A stretch of DNA of 64,000 nt from Atractiella rhizophila. Taxonomy: Eukaryota. The DNA lies in NCBI GenBank assembly GCA_021432655.1, contig MU271223.1, positions 62,001 through 126,000 of the forward strand, read 5' to 3'. The position numbers were made by a program, and so were the translations under genes. Of the stretch, positions 10,110-63,439 are shown piece after piece (position 1 is the stretch's first letter; each line of letters starts with the position of its first letter). Under the pieces are notes generated by a model. That model was not told the origin of the DNA. It was given only the letters and a program-made list of their open reading frames with translations, and made no database searches.

Positions 10110-10497
10110 TCAGATAGGACATCTACCCAGAATTGCATCAAGTAAGAGATCTGATAGTGAAGCTGATGTTACAATGGAGGGCATGAAAATATAAGCTAAT
10201 GATTTGCGATGTCCAGCGAGCGATGGTCGACGGGTGAAAACTTTGGAGCTGGGTGCGGGAGATTGTCGTGACAGGTTCGGCACCTTGTTCAGTATGCTTT
10301 CTCCTCAGCCTAATGACGCTTGCCGCCTCTACCCCGTCTACCCCAGCCTTTTATGCAAATGGGGCTAACCTTGTGCTTTCGACCAAAAGCTGTCATTCAA
10401 CGTCAAATTCATTCCAAAACTCGCAAAGAAATCAACAAAAACAAAAGTAAAGGCATATAAATCGTCGGCAAATTGAGTAATGTCATCAAGCACCGAA

Positions 10498-13400: not shown

Positions 13401-14128
13401 TGACAAGGATTGAAAGAGGGACCCACAAGGTAAATACCCTCCAACCTGTTGTTGTTCCTCAAAACATCCAAACAATTTCGGTATCCTTCCCAGCAAAACC
13501 TCATCCAAGGCATAACCTGGTTTCTATAATCCCTGTCCGTATCCTTGTCCTCGCTCACTGTTCCCATCAATAAACTCTCCGGCGTCTGTGGTGAATCCAA
13601 ATCTTCTACTTCGACGGCAGCTTCTGGAAGAGTTCCGTCTGCCGCTGCAGCAGGAGCCGACGTCTCGGATGGAGGATTGGCAGCTAGGAAAGCATTGGTA
13701 GCCTCCTTCAGGCGCTCCTCTGACTTATTAAGGAAGTGTTTAATTATGGTTTCGACGGACGCTGTGGAAACATTCTATGTCCACATTCTCCATGAACTCG
13801 TTGCAGGCCGGTAAAGGAGAGGTAAGACGCACCTGAGCGACATTTTTGTAAGCATGCAATCCTTCCTTCGCCAGCCTTCCTTTCTTGAGAATGACGCAAA
13901 GGTCAAGGAACTTCAGCAGTATCGGCTCTAAGGTAGAGATGGGGGTGGTGCGGAACTTCTTCGAGTTAAAAATCGAAGAAATGTGCGACAAAGCCGTCGC
14001 AGTCTGCCCTAAAGACAGTAAAGAGTCCGTGCGCTGTTCCAACGCCACATCAAACCCACTTGACAGAGACAACAGAACTGGCACACCTTAAGCACGTTCT
14101 CAGGACGTGCAACTAAAGATGGAGCCAT
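10498..14128 (-). CDS. TIF32: Translation initiation factor 3 subunit A (eIF3a), full-length
   Basis: MAPSLVARPENVLK, KGRLAKEGLHAYKN, QTPESLLM, VMPWMRFCWEGYRNCLDVLRNNNRLE, EFRRLSDILRSHL, PCI-like region, RIDHFERAIRREE coiled coil, Gly/Arg-rich tail. Confidence 0.95.
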
Positions 14129-17100
14129 GATTTCTTTTGTCTGGTTCGCTAAGTTCTAATCAATTTGATGTTCTCCTGGTCTGTGCAAGCGTTATTGAGT
14201 AATCCAGCCAGCTTGAATAGGTATTGTAGTGAGGGGCTTTGTTGCCTGTTCCGGTTGGGAATAGACGTCAATGAATTTCTCGGTTCAAAAACCTGCCTGA
14301 AGCCAGCATTAGTGTCAATCCTGACGCTGTGAGGAGTAGCACGAACTAATCTGGAGTCGCTTTTGCCTCTTGCAACTTTCTCGCTCGTCGTTGAAAAATT
14401 TTGGCTAATGTTTTTTTGCTGCGGATTTCGGGGGCGAGTCAATGACAACGAGGATGACAGCTTTACGATTTGAGAGATACTGTAATATGCGAAGTTGTAG
14501 AGATAGACTTGAGGAGGGTGAAGGGGCTATTACTAGGCCGTATCTAGGATATATATTTAAAGGACCACTTCGGTGAGCAATTGTTTGGAACTGCATGGAA
14601 AGAGGAGTGCCTGGATAGCCCTAAATTCCTACATGACCGTCGAATAGCTCGTTCGAAGTGATCTATACGCTTATGAGCGATACGTAACTTCTCCGCCAAC
14701 TCTTTCCTCTCCTTCTCCATATGTTCGACCTGGATCTGTACCACTTTGGCTGTGTCGAGAGTATCATAGTTCTATGTTCATCATCAGTAAAACCTACACG
14801 GTAACTCAAGCAACTAGAAAACATACCACATTCTCAATCTTGATACCTGCCTTATCGAGGTTATCAACGAGGGCTTTGACATCCTGTTTCCTAATGTTCT
14901 CCACAGTCTTCTTCGCTCTCTCGACTTCGGCTTTCCTCAACGCTTCCTTGGCCGCCTTTGCCTCCTGTTCAGCCCTCAATCTCGCAGCTACGGCTCTATT
15001 ATGAGCTTCTTCAGTCGCCCTTCTTGCGGCAAGCTCCTCCACAACTTCCTTTCGACGAGCGATCATCTTCTTCCTATTCTGGATCGTCAATCGATCTGCG
15101 GCTACTTGAGTATCCAGAGCCTCAAAAGCTTTGGAACGTCCAGCGGCGAGAAGAGATAGAGGACAGTCATCGGGATATACAGTATTGACGGTCTCTTCGA
15201 GGGTGACAGCAAAGTGTGTCAGGCGAGTTCGGAACGGGACAGTCGTCGAGTTGGGTAGAGGATCCTGAGAATAAGCAGACTCTTCAAAGCGGACCTCATC
15301 GGACGAATGGTCGATAATGATCTTGATATCTCCTCGCTTGCTGCTGTAAATCAAAAGCGCCTCGATCTCTTTCTCCGCCCCTTCTGCTCCATTACTCAAG
15401 TTGGCGAGTTTGAAGACCTTCGAAAGCTTGATGACCTTGTATATTTGTGCAAGCTCTTGGAAAAGTTTGATGACTGCAACCCTCTTGAGATGAGGAACGT
15501 AAGGGGCCAGTTTCGGGTTGGAGGAGATGGAGTCAAGGATGGGCGACAATCTGCTAGCAAGGGTAAGAGGATTGAACTGATCCTTCGATTCCAGCAGTTT
15601 GTACGCCTCTACTAAAGCAGAGGGTACCCGCTTCATAACCAGACGGCTCGACTGCTGCAGCATTAGCACGGCACTTAAAACAATCGTAATCTCTACTCAC
15701 TGCTTCCTTCAACAATCGCTCCCTCGTCAGATTCCCGACCTCTCCTCCAAGTCCGACCAGACCAACATTCTTGCCTCCCTTCTTTCCATCTGCACCATCT
15801 GCGGTATTCAAGTAATTCGGAACGGCGAGAGCGCTGACGAGGACCAGAGGAGCAAGTTCGTCGAGTTCCTTTTCAATCTTTTCGCCTCCCCCAGCGCTCT
15901 TGAGGATTTCGAAAATTTTGGCAAAGCAAGTGGAGTGGAAAAGCATGTTCTCTCCAACGAGGAAGATTTTGGACATCTTCGAATAAAAGGTGATGAGGAG
16001 ATTGGTCGATGAAGGAAGGGAATCAATCGTAGTGCTAGCTGAGGTCTTGACTTCTTTCTCCCCATCTTTTCCCTTCGGACCATGAATATTTGTTGCTCCT
16101 CCCTTTTCCAAAAGTGCCCATAAATCCTCTCCAATCCTGTAGCCCTCAGCCCACATCTCCATACCCTCCTCCAAAGCACCATCGAGCATTCCAAATCGAA
16201 TTTCGACCAATTTCGACAGCGTCTCAGTCTCAGAAAAATCGAGAGAATGGGTTTGATTCTGGTACTTGAGCGCAGAGGAAAGGTGGGACCTCAGAATGTC
16301 GGAAAGGCGACGGAATTCAACTCGTCGCTTGTTGTCTAAAAGGAAGCGGAGGGCTCTCAGGGCAACAGTCTAAGGAATCACAAACCACCCTCTCAACACT
16401 GATTGACAAGGATCGAAAGAGAGACCCACAAGGTAAATACCCTCCAACCTGTTGTTGTTCCTCAAAACATCCAAACAATTTCGGTATCCTTCCCAGCAAA
16501 ACCTCATCCAAGGCATAACCTGGTTTCTATAATCCCTATCCGTATCCTTGTCCTCGCTCACCGTTCCCATCAATAAACTCTCCGGCGTCTGTGGTGAATC
16601 CAAATCTTCTACTTCGACGGCAGCTTCTGGAAGAGTTCCGTCTGCCGCTGCAGCAGGAGCCGACGTCTCGGATGGAGGATTGGCAGCTAGGAAAGCATTG
16701 GTAGCTTCCTTCAGGCGCTCCTCTGACTTATTAAGGAAGTGTTTAATTATAGTTTCGACGGACGCTGTGGAAACATTCTATGTCCACATTCTCCATGAAT
16801 TCGTTGCAGGCCGGTAAAGGAGAGGTAAGACGCACCTGAGCGACATTTTTATAAGCATGCAATCCTTCCTTCGCCAGCCTTCCTTTCTTGAGAATGACGC
16901 AAAGGTCAAGGAACTTCAGCAGTATCGGCTCTAAGGTAGAGATGGGGGTCGTGCGGAACTTCTTCGAGTTAAAAATCGAAGAAATGTGCGACAAAGCCGT
17001 CGCAGTCTGCCCTAAAGACAGCAAAGAGTCCGTGCGCTGGTCCAACGCCACATCAACCCCACTTGACAGAGAGAGGAAAGAACCAGCGCACCTTAAGCAC

Positions 17101-38560: not shown

Positions 38561-38935
38561 CCTAAGAGAAGAGAAGAGAATAACTTGGGTAGAGGAACGC
38601 CTTTAAGTGCAAACCACTCGCCCAAGCATCGCTTTGAAAATCGAGGATAGAAAAATCTGACCGCGTCCCCATATGTAAGACCACCACTCCCTTTCAGCCG
38701 CTTCCTATCATTCATGACAACAGCATCACACAGGGATGCACTGGCACCACAAGCGAATTTCAAATTGTACCAATCGTTATGCGTATGCCACGTGCGTACT
38801 AGCCCCTTACAGCTTTGCACCTTGTTGACGACGAGTAACGCCGCGTTTAGAGACATAAAGCAGAGCATAAAGCTAGACAACCACGAGATTAAATCATCGT
38901 AGAACTCATAGAGACGACTAACATTCAACGCTGGC

Positions 38936-40373
38936 ATGAGGGCCTTCTACCTTCTCTGTGTCACTTTCCTCCCTTCAGTCGTTCAAGCGTTTGGCGCTGC
39001 TGGTAGGCTGTCATTATCATTGCATTGTCACTGTTGCTGATAATCAACTGTACAGGACACGAAATAGTAGCCACTGTATGCGTAGAGCTTTCGAATGGAT
39101 GCATCAGGTTCTCAAACAGGAGCGCAGATTGCCCAGATCTATCTTTATCCGTCCACCCTGCAGAAGATTCTCCCTCTCTTACCAGAACCCCAGCATCGCG
39201 GTGAACTTGCCTACGTCGCTGCTTGGGCTGACAAAATCAAGTTTGCTTATCGGTCAGTCTCATTTCCTGTACCTTACTTGAGATTGACGCGTTTGGAGGA
39301 AACAGGTGGTCTAGTCCTTTGCACTATGTGAACGGGAAGGACGACTATCCACCTTCTAAATGCTATTTTGGAGAGCATGGATGGATGGATGACGAAACGA
39401 ATATCTTTAGTATGCTCGTTCCAGAGCTTTACCCTATTTGTTGATGTTTGTCGCCGTTAGCTGCGATCGCCAATTACACGGAGAGAATGGGAGACGAGAA
39501 CCTTCCAACCTGGGATCGTTCATTTGCGCTCAAGTTCCTCATCCACTTTATTGGTTCGTTTTACTGCTTCAGTCAACCCTGGTGAGATTCGAGGGTATGA
39601 GGGGTCAGGTGATCTTCATCAGCCTCTCCACTTGACGGGACGCAATCGCGGCGGAAACAGCGACTACGTCCGTTTCGAAGGGCGAAAAATGTCCTTGCAC
39701 TCTCTTTGGGACGGACAACTGATTGCTAAAGCCATTCGCACTCTTCCCAACTACACTCATTCTGTCCCTTCGTGCGTTCTCCCTCTGTCCTGTTTTGACG
39801 TTTGATAACTTGGACCATTTGAAGGCCTGCGATCGAAAGTGTTCTCCAAGGCGCAATTTATGATCCATACGTACGATGGATGACGTACGAGTTATTAGAG
39901 CAAGAGAAGGGATGGAGTGCATCCGAAGTTTCCTCCTGGCTCGTCTGTCCCCAAACTACCGAATCTCAAGTTTCGGCCAACTTCAAGTCTCGTCCTCCGC
40001 TCTCCGGAATCGACGAGCAGCTCGTTCTCTCTTATTCTCATGTAGGAGGAGGAACCAAGGACCCGTACCCTTACCTCCCTGTTTGTCCCTACGCTTGGGC
40101 GGAGGAGACCCATAGAAGTGTCACCTGCCCCCTTGGATTCCCTGGAATGGAGGAAGAAAGTTTGGATACGTTTGGCAAGCCCAGGGAGGATTTGCCTGTT
40201 GTTAGTGAGGATTGGTATAAGCAAGTGAGGGGCGGCCTTGTGCTTGAGAAACTGCTCGTTATGGGTGGTAGGTCGTCTTACGGTCTCCCTCGTGATGCAC
40301 CTAATTCATGATGGATGGATGTGTAGGGCTGAGGCTGGCTGGCGTACTTAACGCTGTGTTCGGCGACGAGTAG
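38936..40373 (+). CDS. Secreted S1/P1 nuclease
   Basis: Signal peptide MRAFYLLCVTFLPSVVQA then FGAAGHEIVA; AAWADKIK, LHYVN, ALKFLIHFIGDLHQPLH, GRNRGGN, SLHSLWD, GLRLAGVLN. Confidence 0.92.
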
Positions 40374-40832
40374 TAGAGCAGTGGAGAGTGGTAAAGAGCG
40401 CATCGTAGAAATACATGACATACGGTGGGTCGGCTCTATTTTGTTTCAGTTCTCACTCGGTGTTCGATTGAAGTGATGTGTATGATTGTAAGACTATGAG
40501 CAAACACAATTCTTACATGCTTTTTCACAGTTGGTCTAAAGGTTGCAGCTGCAACTTGGCCGAGCTGAGATTTCCCCATAACCACTGGACGCTGCAACGG
40601 TTTTTGAGCTATGTGTTAAACGTCAGAGCCAAATGAGTAGAACTTCCCCTTAAGTATTCTCTCTCGTCGTAATAAGCGGTAAATATCCCCAACATGTCCT
40701 CGATTGTATGGTATGCCCTATGAACCTCTCAACCCCGCAGCTTTCTAGGCGCTTGCTAGCTGATGCCGTCCTACTCTGTGATTGAGGTTGCTGTCCGCTG
40801 TCTTTGGCACAAGCTCAAGCTGCGGATAATTA

Positions 40833-42272: not shown

Positions 42273-43347
42273 ATGGTAGCAAAGATCCCCAGCCCAGATG
42301 CCGTCATCCCATACAAGCAATCACCTATCGAAATGAACATTGAGGTGTATCTCCCCAAAGGAGTCAGTGGAAGCAGTGTGGGAGGAGTAGTATGGTTTTG
42401 CGGAGGAGGTATGATGGATATGACAACCCAGAGAGCAGATGTTAACCTTTAGCTTTATGCGCAGGATTCATTTCAGGGACAGTGGACGATCTTGCGCCTG
42501 TAGAACACCATTTTATCACCGGAGCAGGCTACGCCGTCTTAGGCATCGAGTATCGGAAGGCACCGCAAGCAAAGTTGTCCGAGATAATCGAAGACGCCGT
42601 GGACTCGTACAACTTCGTAAAATCAGGGAAACTGAACGCGGCTCTAGCTGGGAAAGCTGAGATCGACTTGGATAAACTAGTCGTGTCAGGTAGGCAGCTC
42701 TGTCTTGCTCGTCTCCATCAAGCTCAACTTGGAATGGCATAGGTTCAAGCGCAGGTGGATACCTCGCTCTTTCACTCCTTCCCAACATCTCAGCGCCGTT
42801 GCCTCGCGTCGGATTGATATATCCATTGTCCAAAGTTTACTCTCCGAATGCTGGACAGCGCGTTTCCTTCCCCACCAACTTCCCTGAGCCTCCAGCATCA
42901 GAGATTGATCCGAATGGACCAGTCACCTGCCGTTCGCAAGGCACCATCGACTTTGGGACGTTTACTGCAACGGGAAGAAAAGCTGTGACCATGTGGGCAG
43001 TTCAAGAAGGGAAAAGTCCCGAATTCCTGTTCGGGTCTGGGAAGGAAGAACAACAGAAAAGGGCAAAAGCTTCCGATACCAAGTTAGATGACTTCTTCGC
43101 CAGCTCGGAGACTGGGAAGATTGCAAAGTTTGGAGTTATACACGGCGAGGCCGATTCAATGGTGCCGTTTTCGGGAGCAGTCGAATTAGTCGAGAAAGCT
43201 TTATTGGACGGAAAGGCGGAGAAGGCAAAACTTTTCAATATTCCAGGTGTCAATCATGGCTTTGATGAGTTATTATTAGACGAAAAGGAATGGCATGGAG
43301 AGGTGGGACAAAGACTGAGCGAGGCGTGGAAATATATCTTGAATTAG
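42273..43347 (+). CDS. Alpha/beta-hydrolase (esterase/lipase-like)
   Basis: WFCGGG oxyanion loop, EYRKAP, spliced G-S-S-AGG nucleophile motif, IHGEADSMVP, HGFD. Confidence 0.85.
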
Positions 43348-43392
43348 ATGATAGCAAAGAAGCAGACAGCAATCATTTGAGATCGTGACAAA

Positions 43393-44641
43393 TTATTTCG
43401 TACAGTAGCGTTCAAGTTCCTCGAGTCGCATGCGCATCCCAGAAACTCCTTTTTCTAACGCACCAATATCCCCGGCAGCCTTGATCTTAAGCAGTTCGAT
43501 TTCTAATCGCAAAACCGCATCAGTGTAAGCCTGTTTACTGAGTGGTTCCATGCCCAAGTCTGCTGGGATGTTGACTCTCCCCAAATCAGATGACGGCCCA
43601 CCCTGCTTTTCAGACAATGCATTGACCTGCGCCAAACCAGGATTGCGACCAAGATTCAATACTCGTAAAGCTTCAACCCGTTGCCGATACTCCTCCGTCT
43701 TTCCAAACGTCGCTAGCGCCTCGACTCTCATCCTATCTTTCAACATTTGCCTAAAGCTTTTACCTTCTGCTTCGTCCTCGCCAAAATATTCCAAACATCT
43801 TCCGCACGGTTTGCCAGAGGCCAACGCTGCGTTGCAGTAAGCGACGAAACCCTGAAACATTGCTCGATTACTACGAATCTTGTACTTTCGCTTTTGGAGG
43901 TCTTCCGGAGAGGTGGAGCGAATAAAGGCGTGGTAGCAAAATAAAGGCGACGTAGAGATCCAGGAGAAAAGAGAGTCCTGAGTTGTGAAAGGTGGAACTA
44001 GAGATGGTCCAGGAACGGACGGAAGTTGCATGAAGGTCAAGATCTCCCGAGGAGACGTCGTGAGCATCAACGCAGGCGACTGGGGTATTTTGATCTAACA
44101 AAATTAGAAACAACGTCAGCCAAGAGCCCTGCCATGAGAGGGAGCAAGTGGAGCCAACCCTAAGACCTTTAAGACCCACAGAAAACCCCAGGGAAGCACC
44201 AAAGCTTCCAAGTATCATCGCAAAATCACCGTAGCTGGCCCAAAAGACCTCACCCTCAAAATCCGACTCCGAAGAAACGTGAACATCAACTTGATAGAAT
44301 TCCTCCAGACTTCCTAGCGGTACGGCGAAGTTGCTAGTCGGTTTGCCCACCACAAACGCAGTCGCTCCCAACTTCTGACCAACAAAGTCCTCCTTCACTT
44401 TCCGCACTACAGACCCGTAAGAATTCACCTCCACGTCGACCGTAGGCACACTGTGGTCATCGAGCGGTGCGGAAACGATGAAGTCCAAATCGCCGTGGGA
44501 ATCCTTTTCTGGGGCTTCAGGTGGAAGAGCAACCTTCTGATAGAATGATCGAAGAATAGGTGCAACTTGAGAAGTCAAAAGTTGATACTCTTGTGGTGAC
44601 AGTCGAGGTGTTGACAAAAGTGGGAAAGCCCTGCCTCCCAT
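43393..44641 (-). CDS. Pol-beta-superfamily nucleotidyltransferase-like protein (MGG.AF...HGD.D family), one intron
   Basis: MGGRAF, PEKDSHGDLDFIV, FYQVDV (third acidic residue), YGDFAMILG, LTTSPREIL.F, FTTQDSLFSWI; an intron near 44097-44160 joins GLR-IKIPQ. Confidence 0.65.
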
Positions 44642-45543
44642 ACCGACGCAAGCCCTGAAGCTGGATAGGACGATGAGAAAGCCTGGACCAACTTAACCAA
44701 GTCACGTCAAATCAGCTTGACTCCTTTTTCTGTAAGTCAGAGTCACAAATATGCACTGAGCCATTGTGAACATGCTAAAGGTTAAATGGACAAAGTTTGG
44801 TTCATAAACACTGCTTTCTTTGTCAAGCAGACAGTCCAAGGTCAGGTTGCCTGCGATGCCTCATTTCTTCTACCTCTATTGACCTCTACAAGCTTTCTAT
44901 TCTGCGACACATGGGGAGAATATTTGGTAGTGTAGCGCGGACGGTCCTTTGGCAAGGAGCAGAATCAGAGTTTATCGAAGGCATGCTTTGTCCTTCGACG
45001 AGAAAAGCTCTCGCAACGGAGTTGAAGTCATAGGAGACACTTTTTTTCCTACCCAGCAGGTGTCCCCCGCACTAGATGCACCTTAGTGTGAGCCATGGCC
45101 TTCAATATTCAGCCCACCATTCAACTCCCATGCAAATCACCCACTCACGGAGATGAGTTGCCGCAGTCAAGTAGAATTGAACGGAAAAGAATGGCAAGAA
45201 TAGGATAGGAACCAGAGGCTGGAGAAACGAGTGGATACAGGTACAAGATCACCGCTCCCTCTTCATATCCAGGAATTCTTGAACTTCTTTGGCAGATCAG
45301 CTGTGTAATACTCTAGCAGTTGATGACCCCTGCCCAGCTATGGCTTTGTTGAGGGATTCCGAATGAGTTCCGTAGTGAAGAACGGTGGGGGTCAGGCATT
45401 ACGGTGAAGGTTGATTGCTTCAAGCAACCCCAGTATTCACTTGCTCTGCCTGCTAATGTTGACCTTGCGACTTTCCCACGCTTAGTCGCCTCTTATAAGG
45501 CCTTCGGGATGCTTTTTGCTTTCATTATTGGATCACAGTAAGC

Positions 45544-46351
45544 ATGGAATTTGTAAAGGATCCAAGTGGAGCAAAGGTCGAATTAACGATAGAAAAGGCA
45601 AAAGAAGGCAAGCAAGCTTTCAGTCTTAATTCCAGTTCCAGGACATATCTTGATCCTCTTTTTTCTAGCCTTGGACCTTCTGTCCAATCATTTGCAAAAG
45701 AATACGTCTTATGGACAGAAAAGACGAGATTTCTTCGTTGTGGGAGGGTTCGTAGCAATCAAAATTTCTGGGAACCGGCAGGCGACGAAGGACATCGATT
45801 TCTTCGTCGGCTGTGCGGAAGATGCGTCAGTTGCACACCATCTCACCGACAGCAATTTCGATATCAGTCAGAAGCTTGGTATAGATGTCGCTTGGCTCAA
45901 CTCTGGCTCAAAGGTACACGTGTTGAAATCAAGAGACAAGGTCGTCGAGCGGACCAAGGCTCAGCTGGTCGAATTGCCAGAGCTTGTTCTTTACGAATCG
46001 TCCATGTTCAGGTTGATAGCAGCCGACTTCGCATTTCAAATGATCATGAAAATCGATCGCCTCAACTCCGATAGCAAATCTTTACGAACTGCGAAGGATA
46101 TGGATGACCTTATCCACTTTGCGAACCGCGTCAACACGCTTAGAAAGGGGAAAGGAGAGCCGATAATCTCATACCAAGACCTAGTGACTCTTTATCCCCA
46201 GGAGTTGCAGAAATTAGAGAAACAGACGCTCATCAGCATCAACAACGCTTCGATGCTCAAGTTCAACTGCGATGCCATTTCCCTTGCTGGTTTTGAGGAG
46301 AAGAATACCCCCGGTTCAGGCACAACTATCCAGGAGGAGGATGAAGAATAG
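45544..46351 (+). CDS. AbiEii/MenT-like nucleotidyltransferase-fold protein, copy 1 (two exons, GC-AG intron 45608-45668)
   Basis: VVGG...GNRQATKDIDFF, WLN, MKIDR...RTAKDMDDL; exon 1 MEFVKDPSGAKVELTIEKAKE joins in frame to ALDLL; TATAAG near 45494. Confidence 0.65.
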
Positions 46352-47318
46352 TGCTTGTGGCTTTATCTGCATATTTCCTTGGTCACGACAGCTTCCGATT
46401 CTGATATTGTTAGCACGCAATGTATTAACGAAATATGTGGTTAAGTGAATGAATTTGTACCGACATATTCTGACATATCGAACATAATCTTTGTTCTAGC
46501 CTTGGACCTTCTGTCCAATCATTTGCAAAAGAATACGTCTTATGGACAGAAAAGACGAGATTTCTTCGTTGTGGGAGGGTTCGTAGCAATCAAAATTTCT
46601 GGGAACCGGCAGGCGACGAAGGACATCGATTTCTTCGTCGGCTGTGCGGAAGATGCGTCAGTTGCACACCATCTCACCGACAGCAATTTCGATATCAGTC
46701 AGAAGCTTGGTATAGATGTCGCTTGGCTCAACTCTGGCTCAAAGGTACACGTGTTGAAATCAAGAGACAAGGTCGTCGAGCGGACCAAGGCTCAGCTGGT
46801 CGAATTGCCAGAGCTTGTTCTTTACGAATCGTCCATGTTCAGGTTGATAGCAGCCGACTTCGCATTTCAAATGATCATGAAAATCGATCGCCTCAACTCC
46901 GATAGCAAATCTTTACGAACTGCGAAGGATATGGATGACCTTATCCACTTTGCGAACCGCGTCAACACGCTTAGAAAGGGGAAAGGAGAGCCGATAATCT
47001 CATACCAAGACCTAGTGACTCTTTATCCCCAGGAGTTGCAGAAATTAGAGAAACAGACGCTCATCAGCATCAACAACGCTTCGATGCTCAAGTTCAACTG
47101 CGATGCCATTTCCCTTGCTGGTTTTGAGGAGAAGAATACCCCCGGTTCAGGCACAACTATCCAGGAGGAGGATGAAGAATAGTGCTTGTGGCTTTATCTG
47201 CATATTTCCTTGGTCACGACAGCTTCCGATTCTGATATTGTTAGCACGCAATGTATTAACGAAATATGTGGTTAAGTGAATGAATTTGTACCGACATATT
47301 CTGACATATCGAACATAA
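45663..47318. repeat. Tandem direct duplication, period 831 bp (45663-46487 and 46494-47318)
   Basis: No differences seen by eye; junction AACATAA-TCTTTG-TTCTAG. Confidence 0.95.
46494..47182 (+). pseudogene. Second copy of the NTase exon 2, lacking promoter and exon 1
   Basis: Apparently identical to 45663-46351; begins at the intron acceptor TTCTAG. Confidence 0.7.
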
Positions 47319-47944
47319 GGATGGGGATTATGAATCTGATCCTGTAGATCGAGAACAACAATATTCTGTCAAATTCTAAATATGTCTCAAAATATGCGAG
47401 CCAGGTCCACTTGGAGCAAATGAAGCACCATTATCGACACCTATAATAGAAGAACTGAGAGAACAAGCAACGCATTGGAATCAAATACGACTTCTCAAGC
47501 CAAAAGGGAGAAGGAAAACAGTCTGCCCCACGAAGTCTTCTCCATAGCCATAGCCAGACATCCCTGGAGAGGCCAGAAACTGCAATCAAGCAGACCAAAG
47601 AAGCACCCGAGTATTGAGAGCCTACTACAGGGAGCATTTTCTCTAAGACAGCTCTAGCGTTTTAACACCGTCTGGGTTAATGAAAACAATGCAGAAAGTA
47701 AGGTCATTCCTCAGGACGTTGGAGAAGAAGAAAACAACAGCTTGTTCAAGCAAAGTTAACAGGACGAACCTCTATAAACCAATAAACTTGGTGCGTAAGC
47801 CAAAAGAGACAAAGTCTGGCCTATTTCCGGGAGGAGCTTTCCAAATGTTTGTTTCGGACCCGGGTAATGAAATGTCTTTGTTTGCTTGATGTAGATAAGG
47901 TTACATTACAATCTTTCTTTCACTACGTCTATATTTTCTGCAGA

Positions 47945-50900
47945 ATGCCGCCGAAGAAAAGAGGAGCACGACGTTCATCCACCAAGACAGCAAACGAATC
48001 CTTAGAAGACGTGTCAATGGCGGATGTCCCTGTCGCTTCCACTTCCACCGCACCAACTCCAACGCTCATGAGTTCGTCCACGCTCACACAGGCTACCTTT
48101 AGCCTTATCCCTGGACTTTCCTCCACTCCTTCCTTCAACATCGCTGATACAACATATCACAAAATTCTCCCGTCGTTGCGGGACACTCTTCCTACACTGC
48201 TGGAATTAGCAAGGGCAGGGGAGGGGAGGAAGCTGAAGGAAAGTGTGGAGGCATGGGGCGATGAATTTGGATGGGAAGTAGAGGTTGATCTGGACGACAT
48301 TTTCATAGAGGATGAGGTGAAGGAAAGGGAGCTAGAACGGCGGAAGAGGAGGGAGGAAGAGAGTGCAAAGGCGAAGGAGAGGAGATTGAGAAGAATGGAG
48401 GCGCTCAGAATGTTAGTAGAACAAGAATTAATGGCTTGGATATTAGCCATGGTACGTAGCATTCCTTCCTTTACTGGGTATCGAACAAAATGGTTTGAGT
48501 AGGCCAAGAATTCAGAAACCCCGCCGGACGTGCACCACGCCCTCGATGTAGTAGTCGCGTTTCGCGACTCCTCCATGACCGAGTTATCCTTCCTCATTCT
48601 CGCAATCGAACACATCTTCGAAAACTCGTCGGTCTCGACGGTCTCCTTCCTCTTTTCTTGGCTGGAGACGCACACTGCAGACGTTACCAAAGGGTTCCGA
48701 CCATTCAAAGCACCAGGCATATTCCTCCTCCGTTTGCTCAACGAACTATTACGAAGAGTCAGCAGGACGAGGGACACAGAGTTCAGCTCACGCATCTTGC
48801 TTTATTTAAGCAAAGCCTTCCCACTAAATGATCGGAGCGGATTGAACGTTGGCGGGAAGTCGAATACGGAAAATACAACGGAGTTTGAAAGGATGGAATT
48901 GGCGGCGGATAAGGAGGAAGGAACGGCTGAGAGGGATGTGGAGATGAAAGCTGAAGATGAGAAAATGACAAGCGAGAAGGTTACCAAAGCTGGAGAGTCG
49001 GACCGAGACAAGCCTGCGACGAAGGAGGAAGGAGAAGATGAGGGGGAGAAAGGAGCGCCGGACATTGTTATTGTCGAGCCTCCCGTCGAACCATCATCTG
49101 AAGCAACCACGCCTCCGATACGTGCCAAAGCAGCGACTACACCACCCCCACCTTCAAAAGCCGCCACCCCATCCGCAACAGCCAAATCAACAACCCCTTC
49201 TACTCCCAAGCCCGAAGAAGACTCCTACACGCGTTTTTGGACGCTTCAGACCTACTTTTGCGATACTAAACGACTAATAGGGAGACTTGGGACGAGTGGA
49301 GATGACAAGGAAAACAAGAGCTACATCGTGTCACTTTCGACGGAGTCGAATATCCAAGTCGTAAAACCGCTCATCACTCACGTCATTGAACTGTTTAGGG
49401 TTGCCAATAGGAAAGATAAGGAGTTGAGAGGGGAGGAGGAGAAGGAGAAGGAGAAGGAGAGAGATAAGAAAGAGAAGAAGATTGGGACTGCCACCAGTTC
49501 CATGACTGTTCCTGCCGGGAGGAAAAGAGAAGGAGAAGGGATCGGCTTCTTCGCTCCTAAGTTCTTGACATCAAGAAGCCTATTCGAACTGCAGGTTCGT
49601 CTCTCCCCTATCTCCCGCCATGTCTTGGTTCATGGTTAACTGCTGCGATGTGCTCAGGTCGCGGACGTTTACTTCCGTCGTCAAATCCTCGTCCAAATAC
49701 TCATAATGGTGCAATACCTACGCGGTCTTGTCAAAGCTGAACACGACAAATGGGAGAGTGTACCCGTCCCTAACAAACAAGTGATGCCAAGCTTAGTCCT
49801 AGAAGAAGTAGACGACAGTTTCTTCAGCGTGGTGCAGAAGAATGCACTTCGGGAAATCATGGACTCAGGACCCCCAGGTGAAGGCTTCGCGTTTGTGGAA
49901 ACCGTGCGTGTAGTTTTGGCGAGGGAGAAGAACTGGACAGCGTGGAAGGCTGGAAATTGTTGGGATTACGAGAAAGAGTTGGCCGAGAAGGAGAAGGAGG
50001 AAATGGATAAGAAGGCAGCCGACCTGAAGCGGCGGCTAGCGCAACGGCCTCGTCCCCTGAAGTTGAGGTTTGGAGAGATGGTCTTCCGTCAGCCAGGGGT
50101 AGGGACAAGCGATATTAAGATGGAGGAAGAGGATACGGTTAAAAAGCAGTATGTTCTTCTTCCCTTCGCGAGAAGGAGGGCTGAAATGATGACCAATGAT
50201 TAGGCTGTACGATTTCAAACGACAGTTGGATGCGATTGATGAACGGACCGGATATCGAGACATTCCAGCAAAATTGGCGGAGATCAAAGAGAAGCAGAAG
50301 AAGATTACAGCTGAGAAACTGGAGAAGGAGAAAAAGGCAGCAGTTTTGACGCCACCAAAGGAAAGTGAGAAGGAGAAAGAGAAGGTGGCACCAGAGACGG
50401 CGAAGTCGAACGAGGAGACCATCAATACTCTCAAAAACAATATCACGAGCCTCAACGAGGAATCCAAGAAGCTTGAAGCGCGAAAGAGGGAGATTGAGGA
50501 TGTTCGTTTCTTTCATCCAATCTTATCCGCGCAGAGGATTTGCTTGACTTTGAAATTGTTTAGGAAAAGTCATCTATAACCTGGCGTGCTTTCCGACTTG
50601 CCTCCTCCACCTATCTGCGTCTGTTCTCGTCCGCAGTGAAGGAAGGCACTGGCGCAGATCTCGATTTGCTCATTAAAGCGATTGAGGCGAAAAAGAAGGC
50701 TCCTTCCAGCGCCAGTGTAGCTCAAGGTGTCGCCGCCCCAACAGAGGACAGGAGGTCGGTCACGCCACCCGTGTCCAATCAAGAGGACAAAGATGTGGAA
50801 ATGACATCGGCAGAAAAGGCAAAATCGGATACCGAAGAGCTGGATTTGGTGGAGATAGCACCTCCGCCAACGGACAGTGAGATGATGATCAAGAAGGAGC

Positions 50901-55353: not shown

Positions 55354-58300
55354 TTATCCAGTAATCAGACCCATCTCAGAACACAATGTCCAATGTTGCA
55401 GGTGGGCTAGTCCTTTTGTCATCACGTCCGCGACCATCTGGTTTGTGGGAATCCATTTGAGGACTATCTGACCGTCTGCGACACGCTCACGAGTGAAGTG
55501 ATAATGCACTTCGACATGTTTCGTGCGACCATGGTTAGCGGGATGCTTAGCAAGTGTTAACGCACCTTGATTATCACCTCGAATCAATGTGGGGGACGTT
55601 TGAGGAAAACCTAAATCACTCATCAACTGTCGAAGCCAAACAGCCTCTCTTGCAGCAGTAGACAAGGCAATATACTCAGCCTCCGTGGATGATATTGCCA
55701 CCGTCGGCTGCATCTTTGATATCCATGAAACTGCTGATCTGCCCAACCGAAAAACAACGCCAGATATTGATCGGCGCGTATCCACGTCAGATGCATGGTC
55801 CGAATCGGAGTAACCGTCAACGGTTGTCGAACCCATTGCGTCCCAAACAAGTTTGAAGTGCTGTGTGCCGTTCAGGTACCGGAATATGCGTTGCACCTGT
55901 GACCAGTGTCTTTTCCCAGGGTTAGCACAAAATCTAGCAGCTCTGTTGACTGCAAACGCTATATCTGGGCGAGTGTTTACCGCTGCAAAAATGAGTGCCC
56001 CAACCGCTTCACGGTAGGGTACACGCTTCATGTAGTTGTGCTCCTCTTCCGTTGATGGTGCCCATTCCTTGGTGACTTTGTCGTCGATGTCACAAGGAGT
56101 CTTCACAGGTCTAGAATCCCCCATCATGTACTTTTCAATACACTTACGTACGTAGCTCTCCTGATCGAGAGTAACTCTGCTGTTCTCCTCATCCCATTCT
56201 ATGCGCATCCCAAGAAAATTGGAAACCGGAGAAGTAGTAATCTTGAATCGTGATCGCAGTAACGTGAACAATCGTTCGATGAGCTGGTGTGAAGACGCCG
56301 CAACCAGACCATCATCAACATGTAAACAGATAATTGTGAGCTCCTGTGAAAGATCAGTACCCTCACGCTTAACGTACACACCATGATCAGCGTTGGTACG
56401 AACGTAACCATTGTCTATGAGAAAAGAATGGAAGGTATCATACCAGCCCTTGCCAGCCTGACGAAGGCCATAAAGTGTCTTTCTGAGCCGAAATACCTTT
56501 TTAGGGTCGCTAGGATCAACAAAACCCTGTGGCTGACGCAGATACACCTCTTCGTCCAGCGTACCGTTCAGGAATGCGTTTCCAATGTCGAACTGTGCAA
56601 GTTTAAGTCGTTCCGTGGCTGCTATCGATAACGTGCTCCGCAATGAGGACATTCGGACCGTAGGGGCAAATGTCTCGGTGAAATCTATACCCTCCCTCTG
56701 CCGGTCACCTCTGGCTACAAGTCTAGCCTTGTATTTTATCACATTACCATCCAAATCGCGTTTGATGAGAAGGACCCATTTGCAGTCAATCGCACGCTTG
56801 CCCACAGGCAACTCTACCAAGCGTTCTTCCCACGTCCCCATCGCTTGCAGCGCAGATATCTCTGCCAATATTGCCGCCCACCATTTGTCGGCGTCTGGAC
56901 CTTGGAGAGCCTGACGGAAGGATGGTTCGTCTATATTCCCATTCCAGTTAACCCCAACGGCATATACTTCCCATTTCCTCTGCAGTTCAGGGTACCCCAC
57001 GCTCACAGCCTGCCCAGATCTACACATCTCACGATTCATAGTGGCGGCAGCCACAGAAGGAACGTAGTCCTTTGGTCCTACCCAAATATGAGAGTTGGCG
57101 TATAAAGATGATATCTGAGCCTGTAGAGTAGTCGAGGATTGTTCTGTGGGATCAGGAAATGCTTGCGTGCGTAGAATCGGTGGGGACGGAATTCGTAAGT
57201 TTCCTCGTTGTTTACCTGTATGCAGTACCTTGTAATCACGTCTAGGAACATTACGTCGAGGTCTTGCAGAAGGAGGAGGATAGGGGCGAGGAACAGAATC
57301 ATTTACCACTTGTCTGCGGTAGCGGCTCTGTATCATTTCAGACGCGCTGCCATCGCCCTCCAGATCATTCTCCTTTCCAGTAACATCACCCCCAATGTCA
57401 GGGTTGACCGTTTCAGAAGGAGGCGAAGTAGCATCGGTAGTAGAGGTCGGTTCAGGAAAGGATATATCCGGTGGTTGTAGGATAGCGGAAGGTTCTGGTA
57501 TGCTCACAGTCACATTATCAGCCAAGGCATCAAACTCAGAGGGCATAAAATCGTTCGTGGTCCACTTAGCCAAAACCCGTGTCTCCTCCTCTGTCCTATC
57601 TTTGTAAAACTGATCCTCAAACCAGCGTACCTCCTTCGATTGGACGAAACGACGCTCCTTCGGCAACCAAAACAGCCAGCCCTTCGATCCTTCGAGGTAT
57701 CCAACGAAGTAACCAATGGCACCACGCGGGTCTAGCTTTGACCTTTGCCTCTCGACAGGGATATGGATGACAGCCAGGCAACCAAAAGTGCGTAGGTGTG
57801 AGACATCCGGCGTCGATCCCGACCACAATGCCTCCGGGCATTTCCAAGTCCCATGGGAAAACGTAGGTAAACGATTCAAAGTGTAAACTGCAAATTGGAC
57901 TGCTTTTTCCCAGAAAGATAATGGCAAACCAGATTCAAAGAGGATAGTGCGTGCCACGTCAAAAAGAGTATACCAACGACGTTCAATGAAACCCATTTGG
58001 TTGTGAATATAAGGAATGGATGTTTGATGTGTAATACCATGCGAACGAACAAAATCCTGAAAATGAACAGATTTGAACTCACCCCCATTGTCGCTTCGAA
58101 TAACCTTCACTTTAATGCCTACACGTCGCTCAGATTGGCGTATCCATTCCTTCAGCGCCCCAGCTGCATCTGATTTCGCATGCAGGGGAATCCACCACAT
58201 CTTAGCGGTGGCATCATCGATGATCCCAAGTCCGTATCTCTCACCGGTCTGCAACGCAGAGACCGGGGCAGGACCCCACAGGTCACAATCAACTCGTTCA

Positions 58301-61300
58301 CCCTTGGTGTTCGAGGAAGACATTGTGGTTACACGATTCGGTCGAGCTTTCGATTTTCCGGCGGCACAGGCAACACACGGAGGTAACGAGGTCGCATTGC
58401 AATCGAAACCCGACACCCAATCCCCGTTACAAAGCTCTTTCCACCTCTTCGAACCTATATGGCCCAAACGTGCGTGCCAGGTTTGAGGAGTCGTAACTGC
58501 AAAGGCAGACGTGTGAGACAGAGCATTGGAAGCCTTCGCAGGCCGGGAAGGGGCACTCGCCTCCAATTCAATTTGTCCTACGCCAAAAACCGCTCTTCCA
58601 AAGTGCGCGCCAGCCTCGCGACGGAAGAACATGTTGCGGCGGTCATTGGTGAACTTGATCCCACGTTTCATGAGGTCGAGTTGGGAGATCAAGTTGACAC
58701 CGAGACCTGGTACGTAGAATCCCGTTCCAAAATCCGCTTCAGATATGACCCTGCCGGACCGGTCTTCCAATAATGGTTTGACCCGTCCGACGTGCGTTGC
58801 GAATCCGCCGCTGCCAAAAGCACCACCAACAAATATCGGAGGAGTGAGAGGTTGCATGTCGGTAAATAACTCTGGGGAACCTGACATGTGGACGGATGCG
58901 GCAGAGTCAAGGAATGTTGATACAGGGACGGTTTCCATTCCGGGGATATCACGGGAGAGGAAGCGGAAGGCGCCATCAGGGATAACAGCGTCGTAAGTTG
59001 TGAACGGAGAGTTGGAGGAAGTCGAATGTGAATTGGGAAGAGTATGAAAAGCCGAAGGAGGAGGAGTGGACATCGCAGCCTGAGCATTTGTGGCGACATT
59101 AACAGGAAGGTTCATATCAACAACGCAAGAAGGAGATCGTAAAGCTATGAGTAGATCAGAAGTCAAAGAAAAAGGCTGAAACGTTTGAGAATATAAAGCC
59201 ACATCAAATTGAGGGAGAGACAGAAGATAATCAATATTAGAAAGATGGTCAAGAGAAGATTTCGAAATTTTCTGATTTGAGCAAGTAAATGGTGAAGTAA
59301 CGAATGCAGAAGGTCGATGAGAAGGGGATAAAACTGAATCGGAGGGCATAGGGTCGTCGTGAGGATGTTCATTGTCGGAAACAGATTCAAAAGCGAGATA
59401 TTGTGCGTCAGTAATTGTATGAAGAGCTTCATCGAAAGATGTCGGGCTGCCAGTGGAGTAGGTCGTGTGAGTAAGGTAATGAGAATTCGCTTCAGGAACA
59501 CGTCTATGCCGAGTGAATTCTGGGAGGTAAAGCGGGTGGCATTCCAGGTCCATATGCGTGGTAGGGTGAGGAACATCCCATCCACGCTGTTCGTATGCGG
59601 CTTGAACGAAAGAGGGCCAGTAAGTCACGTCCCCATTCACGATCAACCTGCCATCTCCACCACCATCCCATCTGCCGTCCGGTCCAGGGTTCTCCTGATC
59701 CCGTTGCGATGGAGGGATACGAGTATCAGAAAGAACTGAAGTGGACGTATTGGTGGGACTAGCTATCAGAGCTGTTGACGGGGTCCTATAAAAATATGGC
59801 TGTCGATCCGTCTTGATAGTGATCCCAAGGTCACGAAAAGCTTGAAATCGAGCTCTAGGGCGGTCATCCGGGAGAACTGTGCATTGGTTCGCAATGTGGC
59901 CTTCCCGTAAGCAATATACGCATTGCTGAGGGCCAACAACAAAAAGTCCTGAAGGAGATATGGCCCCTGGCCAGAATTTCAAACCGTCGTAATCCCATGC
60001 CCGAGATCCAAAGGCATGTCGTTCGGGATGCGAGAATACGCGTCGAGTAAAACCCGGCCAGGCCTGGGAGACAATGCCCTTTTGTGGGCTACGGACGTTG
60101 TAGACATCGCGAACGCGGGATTCCGGCGGAGGAAGATCTCTCTGAATCCAACGGCGACGCGGTGTAACAACGGAAGGTGGAGCAGGCGGAGTCTGTGGAG
60201 AAGGTGTACGTGATCGATGATCAGTAGGAGGAGGTAGTAGAGTTTCAGAAGATTGGCGGGTAGGCGTAACAAAATCAGGTGTGGCCGGCGTCGGAGAATA
60301 GGAAAAACGTTGGCGGGTTGGAAATGGAGCCAAGGAGGGTGATGGGGAAAAACGAGGAGGAGTAGACGTGTATCGAGGAGATGACCAGTTTCGGGGATTC
60401 CCGGTGCGTGTGGCATACACACCAATGCTTGACTCCTTGGAGTAAACATCATTCCCCATTTTAGAACCTATATGGCCCAAACGTGCGTGCCAGGTTTGAG
60501 GAGTCGTAACTGCAAAGGCAGACGTGTGAGACAGAGCATTGGAAGCCTTCGCAGGCCGGGAAGGGGCACTCGCCTCCAATTCAATTTGTCCTACGCCAAA
60601 AACCGCTCTTCCAAAGTGCGCGCCAGCCTCGCGACGGAAGAACATGTTGCGGCGGTCATTGGTGAACTTGATCCCACGTTTCATGAGGTCGAGTTGGGAG
60701 ATCAAGTTGACACCGAGACCTGGTACGTAGAATCCCGTTCCAAAATCCGCTTCAGATATGACCCTGCCGGACCGGTCTTCAAATAATGGTTTGACCCGTC
60801 CGACGTGCGTTGCGAATCCGCCGCTGCCAAAAGCACCACCAACAAATATCGGAGGAGTGAGAGGTTGCATGTCGGTAAATAACTCTGGGGAACCTGACAT
60901 GTGGACGGATGCGGCAGAGTCAAGGAATGTTGATACAGGGACGGTTTCCATTCCGGGGATATCACGGGAGAGGAAGCGGAAGGCGCCATCAGGGATAACA
61001 GCGTCGTAAGTTGTGAACGGAGAGTTGGAGGAAGTCGAATGTGAATTGGGAAGAGTATGAAAAGCCGAAGGAGGAGGAGTGGACATCGCAGCCTGAGCAT
61101 TTGTGGCGACATTAACAGGAAGGTTCATATCAACAACGCAAGAAGGAGATCGTAAAGCTATGAGTAGATCAGAAGTCAAAGAAAAAGGCTGAAACGTTTG
61201 AGAATATAAAGCCACATCAAATTGAGGGAGAGACAGAAGATAATCAATATTAGAAAGATGGTCAAGAGAAGATTTCGAAATTTTCTGATTTGAGCAAGTA

Positions 61301-63351: not shown

Positions 63352-63439
63352 ATAACGGAAAACAAAGTGGTGTTACAAAAATGTTGCAGAGGGGCGGTCG
63401 CCCTCATGCTGATGCTTGGAATATGTTCAGTCGCAAGCA

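Follow-up and report, generated by a model that had tools for sequence, protein, structure and literature searches.

Two nucleotidyltransferase (NTase) genes, here called A and B, lie head to head in a 64,000-nucleotide stretch of DNA from the fungus Atractiella rhizophila, the whole of which is referred to below as the window. Do they work together? A reading of the sequence alone had taken them for a co-regulated module, possibly a toxin and its antidote or a defence system. If so, a bacterial-style translation-poisoning system would operate in fungi. The caution is that a pair of orphan enzymes from one superfamily can mimic a module until the neighbourhoods of their relatives are checked.

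Layout of the locus

Gene A (minus strand) runs from an ATG at 44641 to a stop codon at 43393 and specifies 394 amino acids; gene B (plus strand) runs from an ATG at 45544 to a stop codon at 46351 and specifies 248. The divergent upstream DNA between them, first put at about 900 bp, is 902 nt from ATG to ATG. Each gene has one intron, supported in both cases by joints in contigs from public runs. The features are as follows.

42273..43350, plus strand: alpha/beta-hydrolase-like gene, convergent with A; start approximate; Peptidase_S9 match at E 0.0034, below cut-off
43393..44094, minus strand: gene A exon 2; the remaining Pol X C-terminal (thumb-like) subdomain and a helical extension, as predicted, through the stop codon
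44095..44158, minus strand: gene A intron, 64 nt, GT-AG, phase 0 after GLKGLR; joint in run X3
44159..44641, minus strand: gene A exon 1, 161 codons; predicted Pol X-type palm; identical to P0001
44642..45543, no strand: intergenic DNA, 902 nt, divergent; one DNA contig of run X1 joins both genes across it
45544..45607, plus strand: gene B exon 1, the ATG plus 21 codons plus 1 nt; spliced contigs in X4 and X5
45608..45668, plus strand: gene B intron, 61 nt, GC-AG; joint in runs X4 and X5
45669..46351, plus strand: gene B exon 2; predicted AbiEii/DUF1814-like NTase related to DUF7582/DUF6036
46488..47318, plus strand: second copy of an 831-nt tandem repeat (first copy 45657-46487), with B exon 2 at 46500-47182
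47943..50203, plus strand: THO complex subunit 1 gene (THOC1), 5' part; efThoc1 at E 7e-38 and 3e-18; ends approximate

Genes A and B are real, spliced fungal genes. They had been called intron-poor; the contrast drawn with their neighbours is weak, since the adjacent hydrolase gene has 2 spliced introns within ~1.1 kb and the intron of A is old and shared. The evidence for expression consists of contigs only, from which co-regulation is not readable. Contig depth in the RNA-like runs (94-265 over A and 0-5.5 over B in X3; at most 9 over B and at most 3 over A in X4) cannot rank the two genes. Positions 44813-45415 are covered by no RNA-like contig, which proves nothing. The intergenic DNA holds no open reading frame above chance: the longest closed ATG frame, of 49 amino acids, was reached by 394 of 500 shuffles. 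A small antitoxin hidden in the gap was considered and rejected, since frame lengths there lie within shuffle expectation.

The copies of the 831-nt repeat lie head to tail, with 1 mismatch between them. The unit begins at the acceptor end of the B intron, so the second copy of B has neither exon 1 nor ATG, and we reject it as a second gene. In DNA run X1, a contig of 2,975 nt omits exactly 831 nt—that is, one copy—and the junction between the copies is spanned by none of the contigs compared. The second copy is either an assembly artefact or a strain-specific duplication; the span originally proposed for the pair, ending at 47318, takes it in unmentioned.

The enzymes predicted for A and B

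The motifs picked out in A, EKDSHGDLD (residues 45-53) and QVD (117-119), are present as described, and a 394-amino-acid protein identical to its product is on record (P0001). The acidic triad D51, D53 and D119 is invariant, with K46 and G50, in 22 of 22 aligned rows; the family motifs are MGGxAF, EAPEKxx[HY]GD and YGD. An acidic catalytic triad in the palm is a defining feature of DNA polymerase X (PMC9226535). When the predicted structure of A was compared with known ones, all nine rows with Z of at least 8 belonged to the Pol X family (Thermus thermophilus PolX, 3au2: Z 11.3, rmsd 3.4, 165 residues aligned), and Foldseek gave E of about 5e-6 to Pol beta/lambda. PHROG 24943 matches P0001 over residues 18-249 (E 3.6e-9), with motifs well beyond chance, and matches fungal and viral relatives of A at E 5e-14 to 2e-32. 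A profile of A had 0 matches among the sequences of solved structures, and P0001 matches no Pfam family at E<=0.1. RlaP, a family of Pol-beta RNA-repair enzymes in jumbo phages (PMC7824862), was considered as the identity of A; in view of the same Pfam search, at most a distant link to it is conceivable. Judged from its model, A is a Pol-beta-superfamily NTase and specifically a Pol X-like one; judged from sequence comparison, its family is common to fungi, giant viruses and large phages, and is without a Pfam model.

The descent of A is best explained if the gene is old and was inherited vertically, as the common phase-0 intron, the tree and the single locus in its own genome suggest. Of the 34 clusters that span the intron site of A, 19 have a break there, and all 19 agree with A in its position and phase; in the tree A falls together with 10 Agaricomycete-type rows (support 98/96), a placement made uncertain by the long branch of A (1.84); and A has one locus in its own genome. 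Elsewhere in fungi, a zinc-knuckle gene stands head to head with the relative of A in 18/34 clusters, and where it does, genes for V-ATPase c and d and for ribosomal protein L6 are often alongside. Other neighbours include a NAP gene (3 scanned loci) and USP7 (one). None of these flanks matches the flanking genes of the pair in the window. Among the phage relatives, tRNA genes or RNA-end enzymes adjoin in 5 of 6 loci, and viral relatives are accompanied by tRNA arrays, RNA ligase, PNK and CCA-adding enzyme. The phage neighbourhoods hint at a role in RNA-end repair.

A would add a nucleotide to the 3' end of a nucleic acid by means of two metal ions, as a step in end repair. RNA or tRNA ends head the list of candidate substrates, tentatively; gaps or breaks in DNA come second, and other substrates seem rather unlikely. 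Independently of any pairing with B, the family might consist of Pol X-fold enzymes that repair RNA ends and have been retained throughout fungi, an idea we consider less likely than not. Were A to work on RNA ends, an unrecognised fungal RNA-repair activity would be at hand; in any case, A points to a family of fungi, giant viruses and large phages whose predicted catalytic core is that of Pol X and whose viral members have tRNA and RNA-end genes nearby. Work of Burroughs and Aravind from 2016, reportedly on RNA repair, may be relevant to it.

The motifs read in B, GG-x-R-x-T-x-DID and K...R..KD..D, also prove to be there, between G47 and D168 (G47-G48, R58-x-x-T61-x-D63-I-D65, K149-x-x-R152 and K164-D165-x-x-D168). 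Four motifs have been defined for DUF1814, motif II lying ~15 residues past motif I (PMC3985639). B has motif I (hG[G/S]; V46-G47-G48), motif II (an Arg before DhD; R58...D63-I-D65, 14 residues after G48), of which a similar pattern is seen in most full-length relatives, and motif IV (+DxxD; K164-D165-M-D-D168), in which D168 is invariant in 9 of 9 rows. In the motif III region all 9 rows keep K149 and R152, with a Lys-Arg spacing of 3 and not 7; motif III of COG4849 is KLxAaxxR (PMC3985639). The six top structure rows for the model of B are all NTases (MenT1, MenT3, Pb27, ANT(2''), MenT4 and a Helicobacter pylori NTase). Their Z values stay below 8—MenT1 at Z 7.6 (153 aligned, rmsd 4.2), MenT3 at 7.2, MenT4 at 6.4—and Foldseek returned nothing at E<=0.001.

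Relatives of B are few, with 8 matches in 1.84 billion proteins, the best ~30% identical. Seven of the 8 match DUF7582 at E<=0.002 and 3 pass its 27-bit cut-off; B does not, matching neither DUF7582 nor DUF6036 at E<=0.1, and is therefore a divergent relative, not a formal member. Nor does it match PF08843. Its neighbours by language model are DUF7582/DUF6036 clusters. Against the sequences of solved structures B has no match and its profile 3 at chance level, and a word-index search passed 0 of 122 candidates, giving no record of B. With B, P0038 and P0037 as queries, its own genome yielded nothing beyond the two copies in the window; DUF7582 and DUF6036 had 0 matches there, and the DUF7582 control also matched nowhere. 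P0038 matched no phage and 10 plasmid records, 9 of them annotated DUF6036; its single match in prokaryote genomes, of 17 residues, was dismissed. In one plasmid region a 359-amino-acid DUF6036 gene lies two genes from a ParDE pair, an uninformative arrangement.

B is best explained, on its model and motifs, as a solo, fast-evolving AbiEii/MenT-like protein akin to DUF7582 and Pb27, and would be one more of the AbiEii-like proteins of fungi, a divergent one whose gene is spliced. By analogy with MenT enzymes, it would transfer an NMP to an RNA 3' end. This role, probably on the CCA end of tRNA, is a reasonable candidate that stops short of being probable; transfer to a small molecule or protein is less plausible, and decay of the gene unlikely. 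Fungal DUF1814 (AbiEii-like) homologues have been published, not linked to antitoxins (PMC3985639), and their function is stated to be unclear (PMC13468701). The literature searched yielded no study naming DUF7582, DUF6036 or their accessions, and no description of the A family or of the A-B pair. The claim that such a system is 'not described in fungi' stands for the pair in the literature searched; AbiEii-like proteins as such have been reported as solo fungal genes (PMC3985639).

Structure comparison thus agreed with the sequence-only reading in giving both proteins Pol-beta-superfamily NTase folds, and in likening B to AbiEii/MenT (motifs I, II and IV; MenT1, MenT3 and Pb27 on top, at Z 7.0-7.6). 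The two genes had also been called unrelated, which is so at the level of family but not of superfamily. Of the kinds of Pol-beta-fold NTase brought up in that reading, MNT antitoxins and signal synthases (here CD-NTases), A appears to be neither, its model being specifically Pol X-like.

Partners or chance neighbours

Are the two families linked anywhere else? We compared 56 loci of A relatives (408 kb), which reduce to 36 dereplicated clusters, 34 of them fungal, with at least 2 kb of upstream DNA in 18 of the 34 and at least 4 kb in 13. No relative of B lies near A in any of the 36 clusters, the B profile giving no match at E<=1 over the 56 loci. Against the six phage loci, the profile gave one match only, at E 0.92; a widened, 13-row profile over all these loci together gave a best non-self match at E 1.7, and a scan for the B motifs found only the window's own gene. 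In leave-one-out controls all 9 family members and 17 of 18 half-sequences were retrieved, and a bacterial DUF6036 protein kept back as a further control reached E 1.7e-7. The test runs from the A side only and covers what appear, from tree and neighbours, to be mostly Agaricomycete- and ascomycete-type contigs, with no close relative of A. rhizophila among them; hence, an A-B pairing limited to the A. rhizophila lineage is conceivable.

A. rhizophila most probably acquired this arrangement by chance, through ordinary genome rearrangement in its lineage, because A relatives in other fungi adjoin housekeeping genes and none in the sample adjoins a B relative. A and B would then be independent enzymes. 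For any one genome the adjacency does count somewhat against chance, a head-to-head NTase pair being expected at only 0.3-4% under assumed gene counts; in a scan over many genomes, such pairs will turn up. The common 902 nt may couple transcription of the two genes somewhat, and nothing indicates that either product acts on or neutralises the other. Prediction of an A-B complex (B without its first 22 residues, alignments unused) scored 0.00 twice, which speaks neither for nor against binding.

The alternative that survives best, itself improbable, is a loose functional cluster: A and B act independently on RNA ends, and a bidirectional promoter is kept for co-expression, with neither toxin nor antidote. 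Both NTases are intact and spliced, and the relatives closest to them, whether characterised or known by their context, have to do with tRNA. A common class of substrate is conceivable, since tRNA-related genes adjoin the viral relatives of A and tRNA is modified by B-like enzymes. Against this, the conserved head-to-head partner of A in other fungi is the zinc-knuckle gene, from which it follows that A ordinarily shares a promoter, and not with B in particular; and a second example of the pair is absent from the sample.

Less likely still is the conflict system first proposed, now as a lineage-specific pair. In it, B would extend tRNA 3' ends in the manner of MenT and stall translation, and A, a former housekeeping enzyme under the common promoter, would neutralise B or mend the RNA ends. 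By motif spacing and fold, T61, D63, K149 and D168 of B parallel the catalytic positions T39, D41, K137 and D152 of MenT1 (PMC10435456), T61 standing in the place of the phospho-acceptor Thr. The high divergence of B, the head-to-head arrangement across 902 nt and the tRNA or RNA-end genes beside phage A relatives also fit. The absence of linkage in 36 clusters, the housekeeping neighbours and the Pol X-like nature of A leave the proposal unsupported; a lack of linkage in other genomes is among the outcomes that the sequence-only reading had itself named as refuting it, and within the loci sampled this is what was seen. A resembles neither AbiEi/MenA nor MNT antitoxins, and an enzyme that adds nucleotides seems ill suited to removing them. 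PADLOC and NCBIfam matched 0 of 9 proteins, Pfam matches over the whole window are to housekeeping genes and one retrotransposon, and the published fungal homologues of B are solo (PMC3985639). Its eukaryotic form, a lineage-confined poison-and-repair pair in which B would extend the CCA ends of tRNA and A guard or repair them, is just as doubtful; if true, it would give fungi their first AbiE-like system that comes with a partner.

Least likely of all is a B without current function, an orphan that is decaying or dispensable and came only recently to lie between A and THOC1: the 3 strain differences listed for B all alter an amino acid (R152, invariant in the family, is affected in one X4 contig), a truncated duplicate adjoins it and the word-index search found no record of it, but its frame is open, its motif residues are all present, it is spliced in two runs, three differences are too few (A also has 7 amino-acid changes among 16 coding differences listed), and the idea is compatible with chance adjacency, altering only the status of B.

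Comparison with known systems

In MNT-HEPN modules, a minimal NTase of ~100 amino acids lies beside a HEPN RNase. A, at 394 amino acids, is four times the size of MNT and has a Pol X subdomain, and neither neighbour resembles HEPN proteins in Pfam matches or in fold, B itself having a predicted NTase fold. CD-NTases and cGAS-like synthases have a two-lobe fold of the Mab-21/OAS type and an effector nearby. They match A at the level of the palm only (cGLR1: Z 6.1, 107 residues aligned; the Pol X rows score far higher), and no effector gene is seen near A or B. AbiEii, MenT1, MenT3 and MenT4 share motifs I, II and IV with B and differ in motif III, where the Arg follows the Lys by 7 residues and not 3; the Z values of B are below 8. 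AbiE and MenAT systems also differ from this locus as a whole, which has no adjacent AbiEi/MenA-type gene: the neighbours of B are the Pol X-fold A and THOC1.

The Pol X family (3au2, Pol beta, Pol lambda and African swine fever virus (ASFV) Pol X, 5hr9) shares with A the palm, the C-terminal subdomain and an intact D-x-D...D triad, in alignments of 162-183 residues (Z 8.4-11.3, rmsd 3.4-4.2). A is without the 8-kDa lyase and HhH domains, its residues 4-11 aligning to residues 135-150 of PolX/Pol beta; ASFV Pol X, likewise short there, aligns to A from its own N-terminus. The dNTP-binding motifs GSFRR and YFTGS of Pol X read EAPEKxxHG and xxSYGD in the A family (32 rows), and A has ~190 extra, mostly helical, C-terminal residues and no Pfam Pol X match. 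PHROG 24943 (Menderavirus, Acinetobacter phage ME3 and others) and giant viruses have MGGxA[FL], K-x2-[HYF]GD-x-D, Q-[VI]-D and Y-[GN]-D, as A does, although A is a spliced nuclear gene; the PHROG label 'DNA polymerase' is putative, and it is the phage loci of this family that hold tRNA or RNA-end genes in 5/6 cases.

For B, most relatives match DUF7582 (PF24483) and the language-model neighbours are clusters of DUF7582 and DUF6036 (PF19502), whereas B itself matches neither at E<=0.1. Pb27 of Paracoccidioides brasiliensis (5uvd) resembles B in being a fungal NTase of one domain and of about the same length (Z 7.0, 172 residues aligned), and is listed among DUF1814-superfamily NTases in a preprint (bioRxiv 10.64898/2026.01.19.700257).

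Gene structures, transcripts and repeats

The two genes stand head to head, 902 nt apart from ATG to ATG, and each has a single intron:

Gene A: ATG 44641 to stop 43393, minus strand; Pol X-like nucleotidyltransferase (NTase) gene; one 64-nt GT–AG intron, 44158–44095; 394 aa
Gene B: ATG 45544 to stop 46351, plus strand; AbiEii/DUF1814-like NTase gene; one 61-nt GC–AG intron, 45608–45668; 248 aa

Atractiella rhizophila is a basidiomycete of the rust lineage. A protein identical to the gene A product is on record (P0001, 394 aa), labelled by NCBI as a hypothetical protein of this fungus. A word-index protein search with gene B returned no record and no relatives, and so the gene, with its GC–AG intron, may be unannotated. 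The motifs that the sequence-only reading quoted for both genes are all found in the sequence. The region was compared with contigs from four of the 21 public runs listed. The gene A intron is skipped in a contig of one RNA-like run (X3), and the gene B intron in contigs of two others (X4 and X5); both genes are thus transcribed, and spliced as modelled. The head-to-head arrangement is present in real DNA, since a single 2,975-nt contig of the DNA run X1 extends from inside gene A, across the gap and gene B, into the flanking gene THOC1.

One X4 RNA contig (depth 8) turns the family-invariant R152 of gene B into Leu (window 46059, plus strand), which could be a naturally occurring inactive allele or simply an error. 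A single X3 contig (window 42751–43923) crosses the 42-nt gap between the stop of the flanking hydrolase-like gene and that of gene A, where convergent transcripts with overlapping 3′ ends are possible. About 3 kb from gene A lies an intron-rich gene (window ~38930–40380, plus strand), the exons of which presumably resemble S1/P1 nuclease.

The span first proposed for the pair contains both genes, but its end, 47318, is that of a second copy of gene B, which went unmentioned. Positions 45657–46487 recur head to tail as 46488–47318 with one mismatch. The repeat unit begins at the acceptor end of the gene B intron, and the second copy therefore lacks the first exon and the ATG. The X1 contig omits exactly 831 nt, and no contig among the four runs compared covers the repeat junction. 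Since repeats may collapse in contigs and X1 could come from another strain, the second copy is either an assembly artefact or strain-specific. Two further near-exact tandem repeats occur in the window. One is a partial duplicate of the eIF3a gene (10368–16777, minus strand), offset by ~3,004 nt, ~98% identical with small indels, perhaps a pair of alleles that the assembly has placed in tandem. The other, of 2,013 nt, is in frame within a Ty1/copia-type retrotransposon polyprotein (55357–63372, minus strand; a 2,672-codon open frame with RVT_2 and integrase). The gene for ribosomal protein L6 has equal matches on two contigs of this genome (G000:C1349:1941-2291 and G000:C1128:4720-5070), which suggests haplotype redundancy; together, the tandem repeats and the doubled housekeeping gene fit a redundant assembly.

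Two nucleotidyltransferase families

Gene A matches no Pfam family at E ≤ 0.1. A profile built from its first matches scored 8,000 candidates and gathered 32 proteins, of which those with names come from Agaricomycetes and ascomycetes. None of the 30 clusters returned by a language-model search has a common Pfam family; the first three are 95–97% eukaryotic, and the structural neighbours included Pol X palm/thumb clusters. The structure model (pLDDT 83.9, from a 22-row alignment) matches Pol beta/lambda in Foldseek at E ~5e-6, and all nine chains with Z ≥ 8 in a wide structure search belong to the Pol X family, Thermus thermophilus PolX being best (Z 11.3, rmsd 3.4, 165 aligned); MenT1 reaches only Z 6.8. 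D51, D53 and D119 are invariant in all 22 aligned rows. Gene A has no N-terminal lyase and HhH domains, and the Pol X motifs GSFRR and YFTGS, as described in the available part of PMC9226535, are replaced. It also matches PHROG 24943 (E 3.6e-9), and has relatives on two giant-virus contigs and among phages, where one search gave 28 records and another 25. With a Pol X fold, absent N-terminal domains and replaced motifs, gene A is Pol X-like rather than a formal Pol X.

Gene A has one locus in its own genome. A break at its intron position is carried by 19 of the 34 clusters spanning the site, in every case with a GT or GC donor, in phase 0, right after G-x-x-G-L-x codons shared with gene A. 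A tree of 32 rows (16 database proteins, eight intronless metagenome ORFs, two giant-virus and six phage proteins; fragments and intron-bearing loci omitted) groups it with 10 Agaricomycete-type rows (support 98/96), separate from the ascomycete-type and viral groups; the branch is long (1.84), and so this placement is not certain. On this evidence, gene A appears to be an old gene, inherited vertically.

Gene B has one sub-threshold Pfam match, DUF2204 (E 0.088). Exhaustive search found eight relatives (E 3.5e-8 to 8.8e-4), all unnamed metagenome proteins, seven of which match DUF7582, three above the cut-off; in the language-model search, its neighbours were clusters of DUF7582 and DUF6036. 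Foldseek matched the model (pLDDT 81.3, nine rows, first 22 residues absent) to nothing at E ≤ 0.001. The wide structure search is led by MenT1 (Z 7.6), MenT3 (7.2), Paracoccidioides Pb27 (7.0), ANT(2″) (6.6) and MenT4 (6.4): middling scores, although each of the six best rows is an NTase. Of the AbiEii/DUF1814 motifs defined by Dy et al. in the portion available (PMC3985639), I, II and IV are present; motif III has its Lys, but the Arg is nearer. T61, D63, K149 and D168 mirror T39, D41, K137 and D152 of MenT1 (PMC10435456, in part) by motif spacing rather than residue-level superposition. The original assignment of gene B to the AbiEii/MenT family holds on these motifs and structural matches.

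Linkage of the two families

In the window, gene B lies within 1.7 kb of the gene A start. We scanned 54 metagenome and two giant-virus loci of gene A relatives (408 kb; 36 clusters at 90% DNA identity), the upstream reach being at least 2 kb in 18 of the 34 fungal clusters and at least 4 kb in 13. Searched with the gene B profile, these 56 loci yielded no match at E ≤ 1, and six phage loci yielded one, at E 0.92. With a widened profile, the best non-self match had E 1.7; scanning for the motifs picked out only the window's own gene. As a control, the profile recovered 9/9 held-out members, 17/18 half-sequences and a bacterial DUF6036 protein. The test is one-sided: it covers DNA around gene A relatives, from sources other than close relatives of this fungus.

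What does stand head to head with gene A relatives, ~160–530 nt away in 18 of the 34 fungal clusters, is a zinc-knuckle gene, and these clusters often also hold genes for V-ATPase c, V-ATPase d and ribosomal L6. The conserved order at L036:6268-12129, a locus of this set, and in 17 other clusters is V-ATPase d, V-ATPase c, the zf-CCHC_3 gene divergent from the gene A relative, then L6. Other neighbours are a NAP gene (three scanned loci) and USP7 (one). In the window's own genome, the zinc-knuckle and L6 matches fall on contigs other than that of gene A.

The sequence-only reading was thus mostly right about sequence features and folds, while the co-regulated module it drew from them is unsupported, no gene B relative having been found at the sampled gene A-family loci. 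The best reading, which we consider probable, is that the genes are chance neighbours. Among the limits on this reading, a head-to-head NTase pair would arise by chance in 0.3–4% of genomes, a rough figure with assumed gene numbers. A loose, co-expressed cluster acting on RNA ends is unlikely. Slightly less likely again is a lineage-specific toxin/antidote pair: one nucleotide-adding enzyme is a poor antidote against another, and known AbiE/MenA antitoxins bind and induce auto-phosphorylation (PMC11375011, in the available text). Decay of gene B is the least likely as main story. Most of the interest lies with the Pol X-like family to which gene A belongs, which is unstudied.

Possible functions and known systems

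That the genes are intact and spliced is shown, as are their folds, their catalytic residues, the ranges of their families and their neighbourhoods; the mechanisms are inferred. Gene A would use two-metal chemistry to add nucleotides to a nucleic-acid 3′ end. Pol-beta NTases that serve in RNA repair are known from large phages (PMC7824862, in part). We examined six phage loci of gene A relatives (L063–L068), one for each distinct annotated phage group among the matches. In five, tRNA genes or RNA-end enzymes lie within 6 kb, and three of these have PNK, a CCA-adding enzyme, or RNA ligase with kinase, counts that stand without a background rate; an RNA-end repair role is accordingly a lead, somewhat short of even odds, with DNA gap or break repair a little behind.

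Individually, the relative adjoins 20 tRNA genes, a phosphoesterase and PNK in Moby; lies just ahead of a CCA-adding enzyme gene in DT01; has metallophosphoesterases on both sides and three tRNAs in BUDD; and is near RNA ligase 1 and a kinase in ZZ01, and three tRNAs in ME3. No tRNA or RNA-end gene is beside it in nACB2. At the giant-virus locus L007, it is flanked by an EEP nuclease/phosphatase and a DUF924–PP-loop fusion.

By analogy, the activity of gene B would most likely be transfer of NMP, either to the end of an RNA, for instance tRNA CCA, as with MenT enzymes, or onto a small molecule in the manner of ANT(2″). MenT enzymes add NMP to tRNA CCA (PMC7450476, in part).

The literature searched, supplements aside, holds no description of the gene A–gene B pair or of the gene A family, and the available parts of PMC2794190 and PMC9503650 add nothing further on either family. 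DUF1814 proteins are known from fungal genomes (PMC3985639; again PMC7450476 and PMC11375011), where, in the available text of the first, they are stated to be unlinked to antitoxins. In Colletotrichum, the AbiEii domain is reported to be expanded, with a function stated to be unclear (PMC13468701, in part). Pb27 is a fungal example with a solved structure (bioRxiv 10.64898/2026.01.19.700257; PMC7913102; both in part), and a table in PMC5434249 lists a role for it in yeast-cell morphology and glucose metabolism.
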